From positions 32,374 through 96,373 of the forward strand of contig JASHNQ010000049.1 in NCBI GenBank assembly GCA_030041545.1: DNA of 64,000 bases. The letters are read 5' to 3'. The stretch is from a candidate division FCPU426 bacterium (GTDB taxonomy: Bacteria; Oederibacteriota; Muellerivitia; Muellerivitales; Muellerivitaceae). The notes beneath the pieces are model-generated. The model was not told where the DNA came from and did no database searches. It worked only from the letters and a program-made list of their open reading frames with translations. Positions 5,341 to 41,385 of this stretch are shown here, one piece after another (position 1 is the stretch's first letter; every line of letters begins with the position of its first letter). Position numbers and translations under genes: made by a program.

Positions 5341-5550
5341 GAGACTCTAACAAAACCTCCCAAGACCCTCGCCCCTTGCGGGAGCCCTTCGAGAGTCTCA
5401 GGGCAGGAGGGTAGGCTTGCGGTGAGCGACCGAAGGGAGTCGAACCCGGTGAGGGGTGTGGGAAATCCTGCAGTTGTCACCCTCACCCCGTCCCTCTCCC
5501 CTCAAGGGAGAGGTGGATATTTCTTAAAAACAGGGTTTTGTTAGAGTCTC
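5341..5550. mobile_element. MITE-like non-coding element, 210 bp, bounded by perfect 17-bp terminal inverted repeats GAGACTCTAACAAAACC / GGTTTTGTTAGAGTCTC
   Basis: TIRs at 5341-5357 and 5534-5550 are exact reverse complements; interior is non-coding and GC-rich with internal hairpins and a further GAGAGTCTCA copy at about 5391; core motif shared with tandem array at 16440-16920. Confidence 0.4.
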
Positions 5551-12617: not shown

Positions 12618-14084
12618 CTATCCATTGGGCACGAACCAGAGCCGGCCAAACTCCTTTATCTTGACATGGTAATTATTTTTGATTTCCTCCACCACCGGTT
12701 GGGGAAAAAGGTACTGATCGGGGATGTCATACAATTCGATGGTTGAGAACTTCCTTGACCGGATATCCCGGATCAAGGGTTCGGCGCTCCAAACCCCCTT
12801 CTTCACCATGGCCGTGTATTCCGCCGGCTGGATCCAAACTTTTTTGCCGGCCATCACCGGCAAGTCCAGGTCCAGGGCCAAATGGTTTTCCCCGCTTTCA
12901 TATATCTTAGCCGCTTCCTTCTTCATGGCCGCATCCGCCTCAGGCGGCGTTGAGGGCCATTTTCCCGACAGGGCGGAAACAAGAAAGGCCGCGCCTAAAA
13001 GCGCCCTCCCCCAGTCTTGGGCTTTGGGGGAAGGTCGCCAGGAGAGGGCCGGATTCGGGGAAGCGGCACTTGCTTCCCCGACGAAGAAAACGCCATATAG
13101 CAAAAATCCCAGCCAATAGTTTTCGGCTCCTAAGATTCGGCCCAGGGACAAAAGGCTGATAAGGGAACCCACCATTTGGATGCTTAACAACAAAGGAATT
13201 TTTTTCATAACCCACAGGACCACGACGGCGAGAAGAACTATCCCAGCTTCCTTCCAAAAAACCCTGGAAAGGAAATACCAGAAAGCACTCGCGTCGAATC
13301 CCGTGTTCAGCCAGGCCACGGTGTGGTCGTAAAACAAGCCGTGGGTTTGAGCCTGTTCGATTCCAAAAACAAGCGCCAAGGGCGCGATGGAAAAGAGAGC
13401 GTAACTGCCCAGCCGCGCCCATTGGCACCGCGCAAGGCAGTAAATCCCATAAACCGCCCCAAGGGCCAGGGCGTCTTGTTTGACCAGGGCCGCCGCCGCT
13501 GTTAAAAGACCCGCGACGGCGATCCACTTTTTCCCGGAAGGCTGGAGGGAATCCCGGTAAAGCAAAAGGAAGGCGCCGAAGTGGAGAAAAAGGGCCAGGG
13601 TGTCGCACCGCGCCATGGTTCCCCATTCAGCCCAAGTTGGAAAAGTCCAAAGGAGCAGGGTTAAAAAAGCTGCCCAAAGCCTTCCCCAACGCCTCCATCC
13701 CCAAATGGCCAAAAGCATGCCGCATCCCAAATAACCCGCGAAGGCCAGGAACCTACCAGGTTGCCAAACCAAGCCGGCTGCCTTCATCAACCCGGCCTCC
13801 AACCACGAAAACAAAGGTGGATAAACCGAATAAAGATAGGGGCCGCCTTGGGCGCTATCGGGATAAAGGTTGCCACCCCGCAAAAGGATCAAACCTTTTT
13901 CCACGTTGATGGCTTCCCCTTGCTCCACTTGCAGAGGATAGGCCAGCCGATGGCAAAGCATTGGGAGCCCGAAAAGGAAGGCCCATGAGGAAAAAACCAG
14001 GAGGAGTAAAAGAACCGCCTGGGGAAGGGTGAATCCAGCCAAAGAGGAACGGCCTGTCCGAACCGGAGAGTTGGGTTGCGCCAT
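12618..14084 (-). CDS. Polytopic membrane protein with about 110-aa soluble C-terminal domain; putative GT-C-like glycosyltransferase or unknown function, encoded immediately downstream of cysN
   Basis: ORF 12618..14111 (-); start taken at MAQPNSPV; many hydrophobic segments; 17-nt gap after cysN stop. Confidence 0.5.
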   Translation of the reverse strand: MAQPNSPVRTGRSSLAGFTLPQAVLLLLLVFSSWAFLFGLPMLCHRLAYPLQVEQGEAINVEKGLILLRGGNLYPDSAQGGPYLYSVYPPLFSWLEAGLMKAAGLVWQPGRFLAFAGYLGCGMLLAIWGWRRWGRLWAAFLTLLLWTFPTWAEWGTMARCDTLALFLHFGAFLLLYRDSLQPSGKKWIAVAGLLTAAAALVKQDALALGAVYGIYCLARCQWARLGSYALFSIAPLALVFGIEQAQTHGLFYDHTVAWLNTGFDASAFWYFLSRVFWKEAGIVLLAVVVLWVMKKIPLLLSIQMVGSLISLLSLGRILGAENYWLGFLLYGVFFVGEASAASPNPALSWRPSPKAQDWGRALLGAAFLVSALSGKWPSTPPEADAAMKKEAAKIYESGENHLALDLDLPVMAGKKVWIQPAEYTAMVKKGVWSAEPLIRDIRSRKFSTIELYDIPDQYLFPQPVVEEIKNNYHVKIKEFGRLWFVPNG

Positions 14085-14100
14085 CTTCGGCCCCCTTCGG

Positions 14101-15393
14101 TTATTCGACAATCATGCCTGCGGCAACTGTATTATTGTTGAGTTCGTCCATGAGGATAAAACTACCCGTAGCCCGATTGCGGGCGTAAGGATCGAAACAG
14201 ATAGGCTTAAGAGTCTGAAACTCGACCAGAGCTATGTCGTTCAATGTCAACGCTTGAGTACTCATCTTATCCAACGTTTTCATGTCTCGGACCCACCGAA
14301 TTCTCAACACCATGGCCTTAACTTCGGCGGTGGCCAATTTCAATAAATACTTGTCCTTCAACATTAGAGGTTCTTTAACCATCCAACACAAATAAGCCTC
14401 AAAACGATTTTGACAACGTGATTCATTACCGGGATAAATCAACATGTCCCCCCGGGAAATGTCGATCTCATTGGAGAGCCGGAGGGTCACACTCATGGGT
14501 GGGACCGCCTCATCCACTTCCCCCTCGAAGGTATCGATGGCCTTGATAGTAGAGGTCACACCGGAAGGCAGCGATATGATTTTCTGCCCCTTCCGCGCGA
14601 TGCCGGAGGCGATTTTGCCCGCGAAACCCCTGTAATCCGGGTTGGGCCGCAACACCAATTGGACGGGAAAGCGGAAATCGTCCAGGTTCCGGTCCCTGGC
14701 GATCTCGACGGTTTCCAGGTGGTCCAAAAGGGCCTTCCCGGAATACCAAGGGGTCGCGGCGCTTTTAACCGTAACGTTGTCCCCCTTGAGGGCCGAAATG
14801 GGGATAAAAACAAGGTCTTGCACCGAGGACCTTCCCGGATGCTCGCCGGAAAGTTCTTTAAAGAAAGCCTCGTAATCGCTTTTGATCTTTTCAAAGACGT
14901 CCTGTTTGAAATCAACTAAATCCATTTTGTTGATGGCCACCACGATATGGGGGATGCCCAGGAGCTTGGCGATATATCCATGCCGTTTGGACTGAACCAT
15001 CACCCCGTTGCGGGCGTCGATGAGGATAATGGCCAAATCGGCCGTGGAAGCGCCGGTGACCATGTTGCGGGTGTACTGCTCGTGGCCCGGCGTGTCCGCG
15101 ATGATGAACTTGCGCTTGGCCGTGGTGAAATACCGGTAGGCCACGTCGATGGTAATGCCCTGTTCCCGTTCCGCGGCCAACCCATCGGTGATCAGCGCGA
15201 AATCAATGTCGTCCCCCCCTTTTTTTTGGGTGGTCTTGCGGATGGCCTCCAGCTGGTCCTCGAAAACACCCTTGGAGTCGTAAAGCAGCCGCCCGATGAG
15301 GGTGGATTTGCCGTCATCCACCGATCCCGCGGTGGTGAGGCGCAAAAGGTCCATTTTTTCGTAGTTGAGAAGGGTTTTGGCGTCAAGGGTCAA
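14101..15393 (-). CDS. cysN: Sulfate adenylyltransferase subunit 1 (GTPase), not fused to APS kinase
   Basis: 430-aa ORF; G-domain motifs [18 protein letters not shown]; EF-Tu-like fold; start overlaps cysD stop (ATGA). Confidence 0.9.
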
Positions 15394-16313
15394 AAATAGC
15401 CTTCCTTTTTCTTCTGTTCCATGGAACTGTCGGAACCGTGGTCGATGATCCGGTTTTCCCTTTCGCTTTTGCGGGTCGAAATGAGGTCCTCAATAATGCC
15501 CCTCAGGTCGTGTACCTCAGGGTTGGATTGGATGGCCCCGGTACAGGACATGCAGCCGAGGGACCGGAATCTTACCCGCATGTCCTTGACCTCGTCCCCT
15601 GGCAGGATGGGGATATGGGAAACCCAGGGAATCAGCAGTTCCTTGCGTTTGATGATCTTGCGGGTGTGGGTGAAGTAGATAGGAACAACGGGGATCTTTT
15701 CCATCTCGATGTAGAGCCATATGTCCAGCTCGGTCCAGTTGGAGAGCGGGAAAACCCGGATGGATTCCCCCTCGTTGATCTTGGAGTTGTAGAGGTCCCA
15801 CAATTCAGGCCGCTGGTTCTTGGGGTCCCACTGGCCGAAGGAGTCCCGGAAGGAATAAACCCTTTCCTTGGCCCGGGATTTCTCCTCTTCCCGCCGGGCA
15901 CCGCCAAAAGCGGCGTCAAACCCGTGCTTGTTCAGCCCGTCCAAAAGGCCCTGGGTCTTAAGAAGGCCACAGCATTTCTGTACCCCATATTTAAAAGGGC
16001 TGGAACCCGCCGCGATGGCCTCCTCATTGCGTTCCACGATCAATTTGGCGCCGATTTCCTGGACGAACTTGTCCCGGAACTCGTACATCTCGGGGAATTT
16101 ATAGCCCGTATCCACGTGCATCAGGGGAAAGGGGATTTTGCCGGGGTGGAAAGCCTTCTGGGCCAGGCGCACCATGCAGCTGGAGTCCTTGCCCACGGAA
16201 TAAAGCATGACCGGGTTTTTGAACTCGGCCGCCACCTCCCGGATGATGTAAATACTCTCCGCTTCGAGCTGCTTGAGATGGGATAGGGTTTTGGAATCGG
16301 TTAAGGTCGGCAT
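15390..16313 (-). CDS. cysD: Sulfate adenylyltransferase subunit 2 (PAPS reductase-fold)
   Basis: 307-aa ORF; [16 protein letters not shown]…[19 protein letters not shown]… typical CysD. Confidence 0.9.
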
Positions 16314-16439
16314 CTTTCTCTCGTTTTCATCGTTTTGGGGCCATTATTCGGATTTTAGGGACTTAAAATCCAGGGCCGGGCCAAAAGTCCAACAAAAATA
16401 CACTGTTCCACGGTTTTCCTCAACGCAAAAGCCCCGAAT

Positions 16440-16920
16440 AAGCGGCAATTCTAGCCGAGGTATCCCCGGTTTTTGAGAATCTCAAAAAAGGGGGCTTAGC
16501 GGAGACCCAGGCACCGCAAGGTTTTTGAGAGTCTCAAAAAATGGGTTTTGACAGAGACTGGGGCACCCCCACAGTTTTTGAGACTCTCAAAAAATGGGCC
16601 TTAGTAGAGGCCGGGGCATCCCCTGGTTTTTGAGACTCTCAAAAAAAGAGTTTTGATAGAGACGGGGACACCCCACAGTTTTAGAGAATCTCTAAAACTG
16701 GGTTTTGATAGAGGCCCGGGTACCCCATGGTTTTTTGAGAATCTCAAAAAATGGGCCTTAGTAGAGGCCCGGGCACCCCCCGGTTTTTGAGACTCTCAAA
16801 AAAAGAGTTTTGATAGAGACAGGGACACCCCACAGTTTTAGAGAATCTCTAAAACTGGCTCTTGGTGAAGGCCAGGGCACCCCTCGGTTTTAGAGAATCT
16901 CAAATTCGGGGTATCCCCCA
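16440..16920. repeat. Tandem array of about 9 palindromic 21-bp units (TTTTGAGAnTCTCAAAA core; variant TTTTAGAGAATCTCTAAAA) spaced at 51-53 bp with related 31-bp linkers; higher-order ~157-bp unit duplicated
   Basis: Seen directly: cores at about 16469, 16521, 16574, 16626, 16677, 16730, 16783, 16835, 16886; linkers alternate between TGGGCCTTAGTAGAGGCCCGGGCACCCC-like and GAGTTTTGATAGAGACRGGGACACCCCACA-like; lies in the 660-bp gap between cysA and cysD. Confidence 0.85.
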
Positions 16921-16975: not shown

Positions 16976-18022
16976 TTACGGTTGTATTGGAAACACGTGG
17001 AAAGCCGTGATGGCGGCGTAAACCTCCTGGCCTTCCTTGAAGCCGCTGGCCAGGGCCACCCCCTTGGGGACTTGGGCGGAGATTGTTTTGTCTTCCCCGA
17101 TATCCAGCTTGTATTCGATCACCGTACCCCTAAAACGGGTCTTGGCGATCTTGGCCCTCACCTGCAGGGTCTCAAACTGGGCGGTGACGTAAACGTCGTT
17201 GGGGCGGAAGTAAATACGGATTTTCTGGTTCACCGGCAGGCCAGGGTTTACGGAAAAGCGGAAAGGGCCCCACACGGCCAATCCCTTTTCCGATATTTCG
17301 GTGTCGATGTAGTTGGTCTCGCCCACGAATTGGGCGATGAAATGGGTGGCGGGCTCATCGAAAATCTCGATGGGTGTGCCGTCCTGTTCGATCTCCCCGT
17401 GGTTCATGATGAGGATGCGGCTGGCCACTTCCATGGCCTCTTGCTGGTCATGGGTGACGAAAAGAGTGGTCATATTGGTCTCCTCATGGAGCCTCAAGAT
17501 CCACTCCCGCAGTTCCTCCCTCACCTTGGCGTCCAGGGCTCCGAAAGGCTCGTCCAAGAGCAAAACCTCGGGCCGGGGGGCCAGGGCCCTCGCCACGGCC
17601 ACCCGCTGGCGCTGGCCACCGGAGAGCTGGGAAGGATAGCGTTTTTCGTACCCGGTGAGCTGGATCAGGTCCAAAAGCTCGAAAACCCTGTTCCGGACTT
17701 CATCCTCCTTTTGTTTGCGAACCCGCAAGCCGAAGGCGATGTTCTCGAACACGGTCATGTGCTTGAAAAGGGCATAGTGCTGGAACACGAAGCCCACGTT
17801 GCGTTCCTTGGCCGAGGCATAGGTGGCTTCCCGTCCGGTCAGGTGGATCTCCCCTGAATCCGGCACCTCGAGGCCCGCGATCATCCGAAGCAGGGTGCTC
17901 TTCCCCGACCCCGAAGGGCCTAAAAGCGCGGTCAGGGAACCCGTCTCCAGCTTCGCGCTCACGTTATGGACGGCCTTGAAGCCGTTGTAATGCTTGGTCA
18001 GGCCCCGCACTTCGATGCTCAT
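16976..18022 (-). CDS. cysA: Sulfate/thiosulfate ABC transporter ATP-binding protein
   Basis: 348-aa ORF; Walker [10 protein letters not shown], signature [10 protein letters not shown], Walker B LLLDEPF; C-terminal TOBE-like domain. Confidence 0.9.
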
Positions 18023-20149: not shown

Positions 20150-21169
20150 TTATTTTGATCCCGGCTGGTAAATCCGGTCGAAAACGCCGCCGTCTCCGAA
20201 AAAAGCGGACTGGGCCTTTTTCCAGCCTCCAAAAACCTTATCGATGGTGAAAAGCTTGATCTTGGGAAATTGTTGGGCGTACCGGGCCGCCACTTTCTTG
20301 TCCCGTGGCCGGTAATAGTTGCGGGCCGCAACATCCTGGCCTTCGGGTGAATAGAGGTATTCCAGGTAGGCCTTGGCCACTTCGGCGGTGCCGTGCTTTT
20401 CGGTGTTCTCGTCCACCCAGGCGACCGCGGGTTCGGCCAGGATACTGGTGGAAGGCGCCACGATTTCGAAGTTCCCCTGCCCAAGTTCCCCAATAGCCAG
20501 GTGCGCCTCATTCTCCCAAGCGATCAAAACGTCCCCGATTCCCCGTTCGACGAAGGTGGTGGTGGAACCCCGGGCTCCCGAGTCCAGGACCGCCACGTTC
20601 TTGTAGAGCTTGGCGACGAACTCGCGGGCCTTGTCCTCACTGCCGTACTTCCTTAAGGCATAGCCCCAAGCCGCCAGGAAGTTCCACCGGGCCCCACCGG
20701 AGGTTTTAGGATTGGGGGTGATGACCGACACGTCCGGCCGCGCCAAGTCATCCCAATCCTTGATATGCTTGGGGTTGCCCCTCCGGACCAAAAAAACGAT
20801 GGTGGAAGTATAAGGAGCACTGTTGTCGGGCAGCCTTTTCTGCCAATCCGCCGGCAGCAGTTGGGCCTTGGAAGCGATGGCGTCGATATCCCCGGCCAGG
20901 CCCAGGGTCGCCACGTCGGCCTCCAACCCATCAATGATGGCCCGGGCCTGCTTGCCCGAGCCGCCATTGGAGACGTTGACAACCACGTCCTGGCCCATCT
21001 TTTGCTTCCAGTAGTCGGCGAAAACCTTGTCGTAATCCTGGTAAAGCTCCCTCGTCGGGTCATAAGACACGTTTAAAAGGCTGACTGGGCCAGCGCCCTG
21101 GTTTTGGGCCAGGGCGCTTCCGGCGACAGCAAGAAAAAGGGTGATGGCTATTTGCTTAAACAGTTTCAT
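20150..21169 (-). CDS. sbp: Sulfate-binding periplasmic protein
   Basis: 339-aa ORF with signal peptide ([21 protein letters not shown]) and Sbp/CysP family body (…[13 protein letters not shown]…[19 protein letters not shown]…). Confidence 0.9.
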
Positions 21170-26774: not shown

Positions 26775-28259
26775 TTAAAAGCCAGCCCCATTGGAGTCTT
26801 CTTGTCCTGGCGCGGTCTTGATAAGGACAAGTTGATTGATATTCTCTCCATCCTTCGTGTAAAGGACCGTATATTGCCCTGGAGGCGCGTCTTTCCCGCC
26901 ATCGTCCTTGCCGTCCCATTGCACCCATTCGTCTTGTTCCGCCACAACGCGCTTCTCAAACAAATTTCTCAAATGGGCGCCGGTATTATCCACGACTTCC
27001 AGCCGGTAAATGCCCGGGCCGTCGGCGAAACTAATGTAGATATTAGCATCCATCTTTTGGAAAACAACGGTTTGGGCCTTGGCCGCGGTGGGTAAGTCGG
27101 CCACAGCGGTTGTTGGGGTGGTTGCCACTACCGTCGGCGCCGCGGCAGGCGCACTCATTTTATAAGGATCCGCCAGGCTTGTGGTTTCGAAACCAGGAAT
27201 GAGCGTGGGAGTCGGCAGTAAGCGGCGGGCTTTTCTTAAAAGAGGCTGGATCGCCGGTTGGGTGGTGAAAGTGGGTGTCGGACAGGACAACGGCGTCCAA
27301 GCCGATATATACCCCAAAGCCCCGGTTGGCTTCGGGGTGCTCGTGTCCCGGGGAATGGTGGTCCAAGTGGCTGTCGGCCACGAAGTAAAGGTGACAGTTG
27401 GCATAAGCATCGGTTTCCAAACCAAAACCGGCGCCGGCAACGGTGTCTCAGTCGGCGAAGGCGCAAAGCTGGGGGGGAGCATGATGCGTTGGGGCAGTAT
27501 GGGAATTTCCGTTGGCGTGGGTGGCGGAACCTTGTACGGCCGTCCGGATGCGGCGTCCATCGGGGCCGGCGCGCAAACCGGGTTGGAAGCGATATCGAGG
27601 TGAAATTCCCTGCGGTAAAGATGCTTCTCACCCTCGTATTGGACCTTGAAAGTTTCTCCGGCGGCGGAAAGAAATTGGATGGGCTGCCCGGTTTCAGGAT
27701 CCACCAGGGATGCCACCCCCGGGATCGCCGCGCCAAGGGCGAAAGGCGCGGCCCAAGTCGCATCGTGAAAGAACCGCCGTTGCCAATCCCGGGGCTCTTC
27801 CATTTCCCGGTTTGGAAGGTAATAGGCTTTTTGATCTCCCGTATCGTTGCTGGACAGGGCCATTTCCGTCCCGTCGGAAAAGCGAAGCCTCAGGATGTAG
27901 GCCAATCCGATTTGGCCGTTTAGCGGCCGCGGGTTGTGGTAGGCATTGTCGTTCGCAATGGCCAGGACATTATCGTTTTGGAAGTAGCAGAGGTGTTTCG
28001 GCAGGCATTGGACGGTTTGAAAGCCCTTGGGCTCGGGCGTGGTGGGCTGGCTTTCCCGGATGGGGATGCCGTTAAGCCAAACATCCGCCCAGCCATCAAC
28101 CGCGAGGTAAAGGGTGGCCGACTTTAAGTAGGTAGAAGAAACCTGTGCTAGCGCCGAAGAACAAAACAGAGCGGAAAGCGGTATCCATCCCCATAGAATC
28201 AGTTTTGAGTTTTGAGTCCTAAGTTTTGAGTTATTGATGTTTTTGAACCTCCGGTTCAA
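26775..28259 (-). CDS. Secreted protein with N-terminal signal peptide, long Pro/Thr-rich linker and C-terminal FlgD-like Ig / sorting-type domain
   Basis: 494-aa ORF; signal peptide …LSALFCSSALAQ; about 150-aa P/T-rich low-complexity segment; C-terminus …GIYRLEVVDNTGAHLRNLF…WDGKDDGGKDAPPGQYTVLY… matches the FlgD-Ig/Por-type C-terminal domain pattern. Confidence 0.6.
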   Translation of the reverse strand: MNRRFKNINNSKLRTQNSKLILWGWIPLSALFCSSALAQVSSTYLKSATLYLAVDGWADVWLNGIPIRESQPTTPEPKGFQTVQCLPKHLCYFQNDNVLAIANDNAYHNPRPLNGQIGLAYILRLRFSDGTEMALSSNDTGDQKAYYLPNREMEEPRDWQRRFFHDATWAAPFALGAAIPGVASLVDPETGQPIQFLSAAGETFKVQYEGEKHLYRREFHLDIASNPVCAPAPMDAASGRPYKVPPPTPTEIPILPQRIMLPPSFAPSPTETPLPAPVLVWKPMLMPTVTFTSWPTATWTTIPRDTSTPKPTGALGYISAWTPLSCPTPTFTTQPAIQPLLRKARRLLPTPTLIPGFETTSLADPYKMSAPAAAPTVVATTPTTAVADLPTAAKAQTVVFQKMDANIYISFADGPGIYRLEVVDNTGAHLRNLFEKRVVAEQDEWVQWDGKDDGGKDAPPGQYTVLYTKDGENINQLVLIKTAPGQEDSNGAGF

Positions 28260-28286
28260 AAACGTCCACCATTAAAAATTTAAAAT

Positions 28287-29237
28287 TCATGATTTCTGGG
28301 ACCTGTATTGCTGGACGAAAAAAGCCACCTCGGCGCCGAACAAAAGGATGGTCCAGGAGAGGTAAAACCAGATGAGGATCACCGGGAATACCCACAGCGC
28401 CCCGTAAACGTGGCTCCTCTCGAAGACTTTCAAGGTGTACCAGTTCATGCCCCACCGGGCCGTCTGCAGGAGAATGGCCGCCACCAAACCCGTCAAGGCG
28501 GCCGACCGGGCTTCCACCTTGGCGTTGGGAACCCAGGCGTACATCCAGGCGCAAGCCGCCCACAAAGACAAAAAAGGCAGGACCGTTGCGAACAACCAAT
28601 GGCGGAAGGATGGATGCAGGACATTGAGGCTTCCGGCCCAACCCCTTAGGGTTAATAGAAAAAGCCCCACCAAAGGCAAGCCGATAAAAAAGGTCGCGTG
28701 GCGGATCATTTGCGCCAAAAGGGGCCGCGGCTTTTCCACACCCCAAAGGTAGTTGAAAGAATGTTCCACGTCCCGCATTAAGAAAAGGACGATCAAAAGG
28801 AACCCCAAAAAACCGATCAACCCCACGTTCTTCGAATAAAGGGCGAATTTCCTCATGGAAATACGGATTTGTTGTTTTCCCAACTGGTTTAATTGTTCCA
28901 GGTATTGGGGCTCGTCGGGGTCCAGGATGGAATTCGTGGACTGGGTCTGGATGGGATAAATCGCGTCCACGATCTGGCTCAGCAATTGTTCCCGTTTTTG
29001 GGCGAAGGCGTCGTTGGAAAGGACTGCCATAAGGATAGCCAAGGCCGGCACCAGGGCCAGGATGGTTTTGAAAGCCAGGGAGCTGGCGTAAAGGCGTTTG
29101 TGCCCGCGGTGGGGCCGGCCGCCAGTGCCCAATGCTTTTCCGGCGGCCCAAAGGATGGCTTTCAGGTCCTGCCAAATTCCGCTGGGGCGCCGGGGGTGCT
29201 TTTGCAGCCTTTGGCGGCCGTAAAAATAATTCGCCAA
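28287..29237 (-). CDS. YihY/BrkB-family inner membrane protein
   Basis: 316-aa ORF, 6 TM segments, family-typical …YASSLAFKTILALVPALAIL… and …WTILLFGAEVAFF…. Confidence 0.8.
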   Translation of the reverse strand: MANYFYGRQRLQKHPRRPSGIWQDLKAILWAAGKALGTGGRPHRGHKRLYASSLAFKTILALVPALAILMAVLSNDAFAQKREQLLSQIVDAIYPIQTQSTNSILDPDEPQYLEQLNQLGKQQIRISMRKFALYSKNVGLIGFLGFLLIVLFLMRDVEHSFNYLWGVEKPRPLLAQMIRHATFFIGLPLVGLFLLTLRGWAGSLNVLHPSFRHWLFATVLPFLSLWAACAWMYAWVPNAKVEARSAALTGLVAAILLQTARWGMNWYTLKVFERSHVYGALWVFPVILIWFYLSWTILLFGAEVAFFVQQYRSQKS

Positions 29238-29332
29238 GGATTTCCTTCATAAACGCTAAAATGAGCCCCATTGTAGACGAAACCGGCGACCGTTAGGTTT
29301 GGATTTCTTTATTCCCTTTCCAAGGATCCAAT

Positions 29333-38092: not shown

Positions 38093-39322
38093 TCAGGCCG
38101 GGACCAGTTGGGTGGCCTCAAAGGCGGCGAGGTTGGGCTGGATGACCTTCACTTCCCTCAAATGGCCTGTCACGGCTTCCTGGGTTTTCAGGCCCGTTCC
38201 GGTCACGTAAGCCACGGTCACGGCATCCGGATCCAAGGCTCCCGATCCGGCCAGCTTTTTCAGGCATCCGATGGTGACGCCGCCGGCGGTTTCCGCGAAT
38301 AGTCCTTCGGTGCGGGCCAACAGTTTGATGCCTTCCACGATTTCCTCGTCCGTGACCATCTCGGCCCCGCCCTTGGAATCGGCGATGGTCCTTAAGGCGT
38401 AAAAACCGTCGGCGGGATTGCCGATGGCCAAGGACTTGGCGATGGTATTGGGCTTGACCGGCCGGAAAGTGTCGGTCTTGGCTTTATAAGCGGTGGTCAC
38501 AGGCGAACAGCCGGCGGCCTGGGCGCCGAAAACTCTCATGGGCTTGTTTTCAATGAGGCCCACTTTGATGAACTCCTGGGTCCCCTTCCAAATCTTGGTC
38601 AAAAGGGACCCGGAAGCCACGGGGACAACGACTTGGTCCGGTGCTTTCCAGCCCAACTGCTCCGCCACTTCGAACCCGAGGGTTTTGGAGCCCTCGGCGT
38701 AATAGGGCCTCATATTAATGTTCACGAAGGCCCATTTATGCTTGCCGGCGATTTCGCTGCAAAGACGGTTGACGTCGTCATAATTGCCGTTGACCCCGAT
38801 GAGGTTCGGGTCGTAGATCAGCGAGGCCGTCACTTTGCTGGTTTCCAGGTTGGAGGGAATGAACACAAAGCGTTTCATGCCGCCCTTGGCCCCATAGGCC
38901 GAAACCGCGTTGGCTAGGTTGCCGGTCGAGGCGCAGGCTAAGGTATCGAAACCCAGTTCCAGGGCCCGGGTGGAGGCCACGGCCACCACGCGATCCTTGA
39001 AGGAATGGGTGGGGTTGGCGCAGTCGTTCTTCACGTAAAGTCGGGAAAGGCCCAATTCCTCGCCCAGCCGTTCGGCGCGGATCAAGGGCGTATAACCTTC
39101 CTCCAGGGTGTTGTAGCGGGTTCCCTCGACGGGCAGGAACTCCCGGTAGCGCCAGATATTCAGCGGGCGGGCAGCGATCTTTCCGCGGGAAACATCTGTC
39201 TTGATCTTGTCGTAATCATAGGCTGCTTCCAAGGGCCCAAAGCAGAACTCACAGACGTATTTGGCCGTTTTTTCGTATTCCTGGCCGCATTCCCTGCATT
39301 TCAAAGACTTTACGTAACCCAT
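38093..39322 (-). CDS. Threonine-synthase-family PLP enzyme with N-terminal zinc-ribbon (C-x2-C…C-x2-C); paralogue of thrC at 46505
   Basis: Start at MGYVKSLKCRECGQEYEKTAKYVCEFCFGPLEA; PLP-Lys motif …ANPTHSFKDRVVAVA…; 409 aa; RBS ggaaggg upstream. Confidence 0.8.
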   Translation of the reverse strand: MGYVKSLKCRECGQEYEKTAKYVCEFCFGPLEAAYDYDKIKTDVSRGKIAARPLNIWRYREFLPVEGTRYNTLEEGYTPLIRAERLGEELGLSRLYVKNDCANPTHSFKDRVVAVASTRALELGFDTLACASTGNLANAVSAYGAKGGMKRFVFIPSNLETSKVTASLIYDPNLIGVNGNYDDVNRLCSEIAGKHKWAFVNINMRPYYAEGSKTLGFEVAEQLGWKAPDQVVVPVASGSLLTKIWKGTQEFIKVGLIENKPMRVFGAQAAGCSPVTTAYKAKTDTFRPVKPNTIAKSLAIGNPADGFYALRTIADSKGGAEMVTDEEIVEGIKLLARTEGLFAETAGGVTIGCLKKLAGSGALDPDAVTVAYVTGTGLKTQEAVTGHLREVKVIQPNLAAFEATQLVPA

Positions 39323-39652
39323 CGTTTTTCCCTTCCGCTCCCGGAAAAGGCCTCGGCTCAAAAAAAAAGGCCCCATCCTGAGATGGAAGCCTTTGAGGTT
39401 TGGATTTCCATCTCTCATCTTTCCCCGGATCGTCGTCCCTTTCCGGAGCAGGATTTGGCACCTGGCGACCCTTTTCGGTCCGGTTGCCGTGGCATCAACG
39501 GGCCTGTCCCTCCGCCACTCGCGATAAGAGCGTTTAATTGTTCAATGAATATTACTCAGTGCGCCTTTCCCTGTCAAGGCCACCGCCATAGCCGGTGGCG
39601 GGTGGCTGTTAGTGGATGGTAAAGGCTACCCGCCATCCGCTACAAGCTGCCA

Positions 39653-41230: not shown

Positions 41231-41385
41231 GGTATCCCCCGATCCCCGTTTTGAAAATTATACCCCTTTTCACCGCCTAATCAAAGCGCGACCCACGGAT
41301 AACGAACAATGAAGAATGGACGATGAAGGAGGTTTTTGTTTGGCCCTCCAAACAAAACACAACGTCATTATTCATTTTAACGGTT

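Follow-up and report, generated by a model that had tools for sequence, protein, structure and literature searches.

Short palindromes that recur between genes have been described in several bacterial systems. The closest to the element reported here are the repetitive extragenic palindromes (REPs) and the bacterial interspersed mosaic elements (BIMEs) that contain them. A REP is recognised by a tag, GT(A/G)G or CGTC, that stays unpaired at one of its ends (PMC3733652, PMC2817692). Intergenic repeats of other kinds include the mycobacterial interspersed repetitive units (MIRUs), which are tandem units of about 40-100 bp at several intergenic loci, intra-operon spacers among them, of one lineage, and the pneumococcal BOX and SPRITE elements, which are transcribed and may have effects at the RNA level (PMC3184786). 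A short palindromic repeat alternating with a segment of constant length is also the layout of CRISPR arrays (short palindromic repeats that are clustered and regularly interspaced); CRISPRFinder takes direct repeats of 23-47 bp and discards arrays whose spacers are more than 60% mutually identical (PMC1933234). Here we describe a repeat array between cysA and cysD of a candidate division FCPU426 bacterium. It lies in a stretch of 64,000 nucleotides (contig JASHNQ010000049.1, positions 32,374 to 96,373 of the forward strand), called the window below, to which coordinates refer unless another locus is named. With moderate confidence we read the array as a member of a lineage-restricted, low-copy palindromic tandem-repeat (minisatellite) family that would be amplified by slippage or unequal recombination and is analogous to REP/BIME, BOX and MIRU.

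The array occupies positions 16468-16906 and consists of nine head-to-tail non-coding units of 52-53 bp each. A unit combines an AT-rich, near-perfect palindrome of 19-21 bp, TTTTTGAGA-n-TCTCAAAAA, with a GC-rich linker of 31-35 bp. A regular-expression parse placed the palindrome cores at 16470, 16522, 16575, 16627, 16679, 16732, 16784, 16836 and 16888, in steps of 52/53 bp, and Tandem Repeats Finder reported 16467-16904 with a period of 52, 8.4 copies and a score of 403, as well as super-periods of 105 and 157. An initial annotation, made from the letters alone, had proposed about nine regular palindromic units at this place in two subtypes, and both the number and the subtypes (TTTTTGAGAnTCTCAAAAA and TTTTAGAGAATCTCTAAAA) are borne out. 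The arms are perfect in seven of the units, where they read either TTTTTGAGA-n-TCTCAAAAA or, as a symmetric variant, TTTTAGAGA-A-TCTCTAAAA, and the centre base is A, G or C. Allowing up to two mismatches, TTTTGAGAnTCTCAAAA has 10 matches in the 64-kb window (0.06 expected from shuffles), nine of them inside the array. The 9-mer GAGAnTCTC likewise occurs 10 times against 0.54 expected, nine times in the array and once at 5391. Hairpins with a T-run and an A-run as arms number 19 in the window (0.5 in shuffles), and eight of the 19 are array units. Further intergenic hairpins of this type were seen at 397-427 (TTTTTCAATTTTGAactTAAAAATTGAAAAA) and 41333-41358 (TTTTTGTTTGGccctCCAAACAAAAC).

The linkers are not unique, as the annotation had also noted, and their pairwise identity averages 0.69 (range 0.55-0.97). 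The two alternating linker classes that it described hold only approximately: W3 and W6 form one class and W2, W4 and W7 another, while W1, W5 and W8 are hybrids or something else. A duplication of a three-unit block of about 157 bp is clear. The segments 16575-16731 and 16732-16887 are 90.4% identical, other registers reaching 75-76%, which is evidence of amplification through higher-order tandem duplication. No open reading frame (ORF) in the window spans the array. A coding repeat was rejected, since TGA, TAG or TAA interrupts the palindromes on both strands, the period is not divisible by three and a spanning ORF is lacking. The parts of the array are as follows.

16468..16906, minus strand (the common orientation of the family by the unit profile, as for the cys genes): whole array, from Tandem Repeats Finder, the unit table and profile R1
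16470..16488, no strand: palindrome 1, TTTTTGAGAaTCTCAAAAA
16522..16540, no strand: palindrome 2, TTTTTGAGAgTCTCAAAAA
16575..16593, no strand: palindrome 3, TTTTTGAGAcTCTCAAAAA
16627..16645, no strand: palindrome 4, TTTTTGAGAcTCTCAAAAA
16679..16697, no strand: palindrome 5, subtype 2, TTTTAGAGAaTCTCTAAAA, with a symmetric T:A to A:T change
16732..16750, no strand: palindrome 6, TTTTTGAGAaTCTCAAAAA
16784..16802, no strand: palindrome 7, TTTTTGAGAcTCTCAAAAA
16836..16854, no strand: palindrome 8, subtype 2, TTTTAGAGAaTCTCTAAAA
16888..16906, no strand: palindrome 9, degenerate edge unit on the cysA side, TTTTAGAGAaTCTCAAATT
16575..16887, no strand: duplicated three-unit block, from the 90.4% identity of its halves and the Tandem Repeats Finder period of 157
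16456..16467, minus strand: boundary repeat GGGGATACCTCG on the cysD side, which opens a shortened terminal linker matching the linker CCGGGGATAACCCGG of a second array (L004, see below)
16907..16918, minus strand: boundary repeat GGGGATACCCCG on the cysA side, identical at 11 of 12 positions to the copy on the cysD side

A scan for the pattern GTTTTWGAGANTCTCWAAAA in one genome per species (185,579 species) returned 65 loci. At 62 of these there was a single site, as chance predicts, and the other three all belonged to one metagenome-assembled genome (MAG), 'candidate division FCPU426 bacterium JOPF088'. The first of them, L063, is the orthologous cysA-cysD gap. It holds nine units of 52/53 bp with a degenerate unit on the cysA side, but its mix of units differs from that of the window, three near-identical subtype-2 units standing in a row as a triplicated unit. 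Since in addition the 157-bp block is duplicated at about 90%, the array has clearly undergone turnover. The search of other loci that the annotation had proposed as a check also found two further arrays in JOPF088. L004, with five units and one degenerate unit at a period of 52, lies downstream of the dacA-pdxJ gene cluster. L007, upstream of holA, has seven units in which lengths of 54 and 51 bp alternate (sum 105), carrying TTTTGGAGAtTCTCCAAAA and TTTTAGAGAcTCTCTAAAA. All contexts (cysA|cysD, dacA-pdxJ, holA) are intergenic and among housekeeping genes. The genes around L004 and L007 have no counterpart in the window or in the loci of relatives. The mean periods in the four arrays are 52.25, 52.4, 52.2 and 52.3 bp, and linker identity within the other arrays averages 0.72-0.83. 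The count of three JOPF088 contigs is one by the exact pattern, which variant palindromes would escape. Two simple explanations of the window array were rejected at this point: an assembly artefact, because the orthologous array occurs in an independent MAG, and a cys-specific operator, because other arrays sit at the pdxJ and holA loci.

It might be asked whether the arrays share more than a palindrome. By global identity the linkers of different arrays lie near the shuffle background of 0.51 ± 0.06, and they initially looked unrelated. Shuffle-calibrated alignment matched the linkers of L004 with the reverse complement of those of L007 (z = 4.2-5.9), and those of the window or L063 with the reverse complement of those of L004 (z = 2.3-3.0). 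Moreover the terminal half-linker of the window on the cysD side, AAAAACCGGGGATACCTCGG, nearly equals the L004 linker AAAAAACCGGGGATAACCCGG. The 29 units of the four arrays align end to end in the orientations window (-), L063 (-), L004 (+) and L007 (-), and the family consensus is TTTTTGAGAnTCTCAAAAA-CC-GGGG(A/T)TA(A)CCCGG...CCAAGG. A covariance model built on this alignment finds all the units again, with scores of 43-74 bits and on one strand only. In the window the model R1 gives nine full-length minus-strand matches (46-71 bits) and nothing else significant; the 64-kb window contains one array and no solitary unit. On these alignments the four arrays descend from one ancestral unit and form a single repeat family. 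Since linkers are homologous from array to array, the period of about 52 bp is inherited, and a molecular ruler setting it, which was considered, is not needed. With four arrays at three loci and a composition that differs between the window and L063, the family has the character of a dispersed minisatellite, or variable-number tandem repeat (VNTR).

Beyond the window and JOPF088 the family was not seen in the collections searched. In the JGI metagenomes a two-unit gapped pattern gave no array and a one-unit pattern gave singletons only; IMG/VR yielded three singletons and no array, and the plasmid and phage collections no blastn match. The family was also absent, by regular expression and by profile, from 81 kb of sequence from nine loci of relatives.

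The neighbourhood of the array allows its origin to be placed. On the minus strand the gene order is sbp (20150-21169), an HPr-like gene, cysT, cysW, cysA, a gap of 662 bp, cysD and cysN. The features that flank the array are these.

16976..18022, minus strand: cysA, sulfate ABC transporter ATPase, with its stop codon 70 bp from the array
15390..16313, minus strand: cysD, sulfate adenylyltransferase subunit 2
16314..16432, minus strand: conserved cysD-proximal segment, presumed promoter or leader of cysD, known from alignments and also present in relatives without the array; the array lies upstream of it

Contigs of relatives were reached through CysD homologues at 76-93% identity. Without the array, the cysA-cysD gap measures 118 bp in L160, about 120 bp in L161, 147 bp in L165 and L166 and 104 bp in L167 and L168. 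The annotation was right, then, to see the array as filling a gap inside an otherwise contiguous sulfate block (662 bp here against 104-147 bp in the relatives compared). In two other cases the junction is occupied differently: the gap of L162 (9660-10000) holds 341 bp of unrelated sequence, and in L164 (5-1676) a 501-aa gene without a Pfam domain lies between a 3' remnant of cysA and cysD. The cysA-cysD junction is in this respect a variable spot in the lineage, filled by a short gap, unrelated sequence, an extra gene or the array. The cysD-proximal segment is retained in the aligned L160, L161, L165 and L167. It starts about 10-30 bp from the cysA stop codon in L160 and L161, whereas about 550 bp, including the array, shift it in the window. 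In cysA, the nucleotide identity to the window is 87% for JOPF088, the closest genome, which has the array, and 84% for L160, which lacks it. The alignments identify the array as an insertion into the cysA-cysD spacer, and by parsimony the gain would date to the ancestor that the window genome shares with JOPF088. Since the array is absent from close relatives, the cys operon evidently works without it; the host roles put forward in the annotation (mRNA stability, terminator, site for a nucleoid protein) are to be read as hypothetical.

The cysD-proximal segment deserves a remark of its own. A stretch of about 120 bp directly upstream of cysD is kept in five genomes (window 16314-16432, minus strand; L160 4452-4567; L161 95-212; L165 9900-10003; L167 9905-10003), with coding regions at only 77-87% identity. 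The conserved blocks include GTGTATTTTTGTTGG and CTGGATTTT...AAAAGCCGAATAATG, and RNAalifold proposes a weak long-range stem. Rfam has no match for the segment, which could be a promoter or a sulfur-responsive leader.

Palindrome and linker are under different constraint. When arrays at different loci are compared, identity is 0.88-0.97 over the 18 arm positions and 0.36-0.58 over the linkers; among the units of one array it is 0.91-1.00 and 0.64-0.82, respectively. Almost all arm variation falls on one position pair (5/15) beside GAGA/TCTC, which is T:A, A:T or G:C, with a few G·T or A·C intermediates. GAGA-n-TCTC itself is near-invariant, with one G-for-A change in 31 units and a free centre base. 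The arm mismatches of L007 are all G·T on one strand. This pattern of complementary mutation is the one reported for REPs in BIMEs (PMC2817692). Folded as RNA, the hairpin has about -5 kcal/mol in the main subtype and -10 to -12 kcal/mol in variants. The simplest inference from the alignments is sequence-specific recognition of the palindrome by some protein, and the complementarity at the variable pair suggests that the folded form may matter too. A conserved palindrome beside a linker that drifts at constant length would imply a recognition partner, either a transposase-like enzyme or a DNA- or RNA-binding protein.

Two further properties of the units were considered. Class-1 and L004 units form an AU stem around two GC hairpins (z -2.3 to -3.1). 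A conserved RNA structure of the linkers was rejected, because class-2 and L007 units fold no better than shuffles and RNAalifold on the 29 units retains the palindrome only. Every palindrome centre (16477, 16529, 16582 and so on) is a GANTC site, a HinfI/CcrM-type motif with N free. A methylation-site reading was not retained; the motif alone supports it, and the window has 166 GANTC sites where 208 are expected (0.8).

How does the family compare with the repeats named at the outset? On defining features the array is not a REP or BIME. None of its 31 units has a GT(A/G)G or CGTC head, the 5' flanks being CGG, CAG or GGG and the 3' flanks A, C, TG or CC. The stem TTTTTGAGA/TCTCAAAAA is AT-rich, perfect in most units and has a 1-nt centre, whereas a REP is GC-rich and imperfect, 20-40 bp long, with a loop of at least 2-4 nt. 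Full-length matches of the array all lie on one strand and its linkers are homologous across arrays, whereas in BIMEs the orientation alternates and the inter-REP segments of different BIMEs are unrelated. Copy number appears low here (three JOPF088 contigs by the exact pattern), whereas REPs exceed 100 per genome, solitary and paired, and no REP-associated tyrosine transposase (RAYT; an IS200/IS605-like Y1 transposase) is found in the window. The likeness to REP/BIME mosaics drawn by the initial annotation is accordingly fair as a functional analogy and fails on the missing head, the AT-rich near-perfect stem, the uniform orientation and the apparently low copy number. What is shared, especially with BIME-2-type clusters of Proteobacteria, is the presence of regularly spaced extragenic palindromes that lie downstream of genes or between co-directional ones, the head-to-tail module, palindromy kept by complementary mutation and variable presence among related genomes. 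The two alternating linker classes of L007 produce a 105-bp module which recalls the two-segment BIME module (PMC2817692, PMC3733652).

With BOX and SPRITE the array shares its non-coding, intergenic nature; BOX has a tandem internal module, and SPRITE a fold like a Rho-independent terminator near the 3' ends of genes (PMC3184786). There is no sequence relation to either. BOX has distinct A and C end modules and SPRITE is a single unit, whereas the array conserves an AT palindrome and not a GC hairpin. The resemblance to MIRUs lies in tandem units at several intergenic loci, intra-operon spacers included, of a single lineage. MIRUs are not known to have a conserved perfect palindrome core, contain short coupling ORFs and occupy about 40-50 loci per genome. 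In the array unit, by comparison, every frame has stop codons, and at least three arrays are documented.

The history that we propose for the array runs as follows. In the ancestor shared by the window genome and JOPF088, a founder unit would have come to lie between the stop codon of cysA and the conserved control region of cysD, and the array would then have been amplified and reshuffled through replication slippage or unequal recombination. The palindrome was held while the linker drifted, most likely because it is the target of a trans-acting protein or because the hairpin is needed for the maintenance of the element itself. Since the array lies in the 3' region of cysA and is co-oriented with the operon, it would be transcribed as a string of stem-loops, some followed by U-tracts. 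The effect on the host, if any, would probably be a partial uncoupling of the cysPTWA transcript from the cysDN transcript.

Several observations weigh against this reading. The complementary arm changes represent only about 3-4 independent events, because the units copy one another. The innermost A/T positions next to the 1-nt centre are invariant although a hairpin leaves them unpaired, so that base pairing by itself is no sufficient reason for the conservation. The 64-kb window contains no transposase, RAYT or other candidate partner protein. Copy number looks low for a selfish repeat (one array per 64 kb; three JOPF088 contigs), which is unusual. Finally, nine units persist in two genomes that are about 13-18% diverged in nucleotide sequence, and together with the mean periods of 52.2-52.4 bp this persistence hints at a constraint at the level of the host rather than at neutrality.

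The last points bear directly on the strongest alternative, which we nevertheless hold to be unlikely: that the array is a phased platform for a protein binding double-stranded DNA. The palindrome would be the operator of a dimeric protein; with about 52.3 bp from one to the next, which makes 5.0 helical turns, all operators would lie on one face of the helix. Such a platform could act as a cooperative array, be it centromere-like, nucleoid-organising or a transcriptional roadblock, and its layout may be compared with that of sopC of plasmid F. The units of sopC are direct tandem repeats, a few tens of bp long, and each has one short inverted repeat at conserved spacing. The dyad symmetry of our palindrome is perfect up to the one free centre base, including the positions that a hairpin cannot pair, and the GAGA-n-TCTC core is almost invariant over the 31 units. 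The linkers drift in sequence while their length is held, even in L007, where 54 and 51 bp add up to 105, and nine units were retained in two diverged genomes. However, no par, helix-turn-helix (HTH) or other lineage-specific gene adjoins any of the arrays, and close relatives have the same operon without the array. Common descent of the units accounts for the constant period, and the complementary covariation at 5/15 suits base pairing better than read-out by a protein. The comparison with sopC also has its limits, in that the family occurs at several chromosomal housekeeping loci with no ParA/ParB-type genes nearby and is absent from close relatives. A replication origin or par locus near the array was rejected as well, since the orientation switch at about 60 kb is flanked by zinc-ribbon and Tad-pilus genes and not by dnaA or parAB. 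The more specific proposal, that the arrays are platforms for a protein of this FCPU426 sub-lineage which binds the TTTTNGAGA-n-TCTCNAAAA dyad and, through 5-9 sites in five-turn phasing, builds a cooperative nucleoprotein structure at a few loci, appears to us quite doubtful. If it were true, the array would be a chromosomal sopC-like or insulator-like array, and this would explain the near-invariant dyad with its bases that a hairpin leaves unpaired, the mean periods of 52.2-52.4 bp in every array and the retention of nine units in two diverged genomes.

An explanation at the RNA level seems distinctly improbable, although parts of the array speak for it. Read from centre to centre, a unit consists of an A-run, GC hairpins and a T-run, and could form a bidirectional intrinsic terminator. 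A tandem cassette of such units might insulate cysPTWA from cysDN and close the other operons, somewhat as in the pneumococcal SPRITE (PMC3184786). In the sense (minus) direction the class-1 units have GGGCCtctactaaGGCCC followed by ATTTTTT, and a terminator scan caught two of them. All five L004 units carry CCGGGttatyCCYGG and then T6-7 on the strand of the upstream operon. The window and L004 arrays stand directly downstream of a gene or operon, and cysD retains a conserved upstream region of its own. Against this, the number of terminator sites is not significant (6 against 3.5 ± 2.2 in shuffles), and the class-2 units of the window and the L007 units are without the hairpin and fold no better than shuffles. 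RNAalifold finds no family-wide linker structure apart from the palindrome, the orientation of the units relative to the upstream genes varies by locus, and the near-invariant GAGAnTCTC is left unexplained.

That the array encodes small RNAs, or a processed repeat RNA outside immunity with conserved 'spacers' in a CRISPR-like layout, is very improbable in our estimation. It would fit the regular succession of repeat and spacer, the hairpin-capable repeat, the degenerate edge repeats and the L007 mismatches, which, as mentioned, are G·T throughout on one strand. On the other hand no promoter-like sites were found, no Rfam family (CRISPR-DR families included) matches, and there is no conserved structure beyond the palindrome, whose hairpin is weak in the main subtype (about -5 kcal/mol). 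When units are read in the same polarity, moreover, the degenerate edge unit of the window stands at one end and that of L004 at the other, for which reason a CRISPR-like polarity of the degenerate terminal repeat was also rejected. A genuine or decayed CRISPR array, finally, can hardly be credited: although the periodicity of 21 + 31 bp, the degenerate edges and the several arrays per genome are superficially CRISPR-like and subtype 2 starts with GTTTTAGAG, which we take to be reminiscent of type II repeats, the mean linker identity of 0.69 exceeds the 60% limit for spacers, the conserved repeat of 19-21 bp falls short of the 23-bp minimum, the linkers have no viral, plasmid or phage match beyond chance 16-17-mers that do not extend, neither cas genes in the 64 kb nor an Rfam CRISPR-DR match is present, and the 'spacers' are paralogous copies whose homologues, and not new spacers, fill the orthologous array L063, all in agreement with the annotation's own verdict.

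The initial annotation had further claimed that the core of the array is shared with an element that resembles a MITE (a miniature transposable element with inverted repeats). The support for this claim proved weak.

5341..5550, no strand: possibly related element, in which a perfect 17-bp inverted repeat, GGTTTTGTTAGAGTCTC, encloses 176 bp and GAGAGTCTC lies inside at 5391

Its right end matches the array palindrome with 2 mismatches and looks like a single palindrome unit that carries a 2-nt bulge; the likeness is partial and extends over about 17 nt. Under the whole-unit profile R1 the element scores about 6 bits (E of about 8), which is noise. It is present in a single copy in the window and in none of the 164 loci compared, and its flanks show no clear target-site duplication. 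The relation to the array is suggestive only. The exact 22-nt motif CACCCTCACCCCGnCCCTCTCC occurs both in the interior of the element (5478-5499) and in L007 (2526-2547), at the contig end by the array. It is probably another multi-copy repeat of the lineage, because the break of the L007 contig falls within it; a CCCTCTCCCCtcaaGGGAGAGG hairpin follows it in the window. The sequence evidence shows the two types of repeat to occur together but falls short of a MITE relationship. A second recurrent intergenic motif combines (GAGTTTT)n heptamers, GAGTTAWTGA and an AT-armed hairpin such as GTTTTTGAACCtccGGTTCAAAAAC, whose outer arms resemble the array palindrome. It was seen at 358-430 and 28200-28265 of the window and at about 1040-1090 of L004, i.e. 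at three sites in two genomes.

The remainder of the window is ordinary chromosome. It carries gltB, glycogen enzymes, a porin, peroxiredoxins, ThiF and PALP enzymes, amino-acid biosynthesis genes, mreBC-pbp2-rodA and Tad-pilus genes. Pfam scans of all 60 ORFs in the 64 kb gave housekeeping families only, with no transposase, RAYT, cas or par genes. Three ORFs on the minus strand have no Pfam or NCBIfam match (12618-14111, 26775-28259 and 28231-29271; 497, 494 and 346 aa), and a 495-aa gene without a Pfam domain near cysN in L165 is of similar size. The sole match of Rfam 15 in the window is an S-adenosylmethionine (SAM, S-box) riboswitch, a known family, at 39412-39530 on the minus strand (82.8 bits, gathering score 44.4), upstream of a gene for a pyridoxal phosphate (PLP)-dependent enzyme at 38093-39418. 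The array region gave miRNA-hairpin noise far under threshold.

The array represents a new repeat family in FCPU426, a candidate phylum without a cultured member, and its value is mainly descriptive. It offers a clean CRISPR-like layout that is no CRISPR, and could serve as a negative control for array finders. The arrays would also be good VNTR markers for strain typing in metagenomes. Should the partner protein be found, it would constitute with the palindrome a new protein-palindrome pair akin to REP/RAYT and CRISPR/Cas6.

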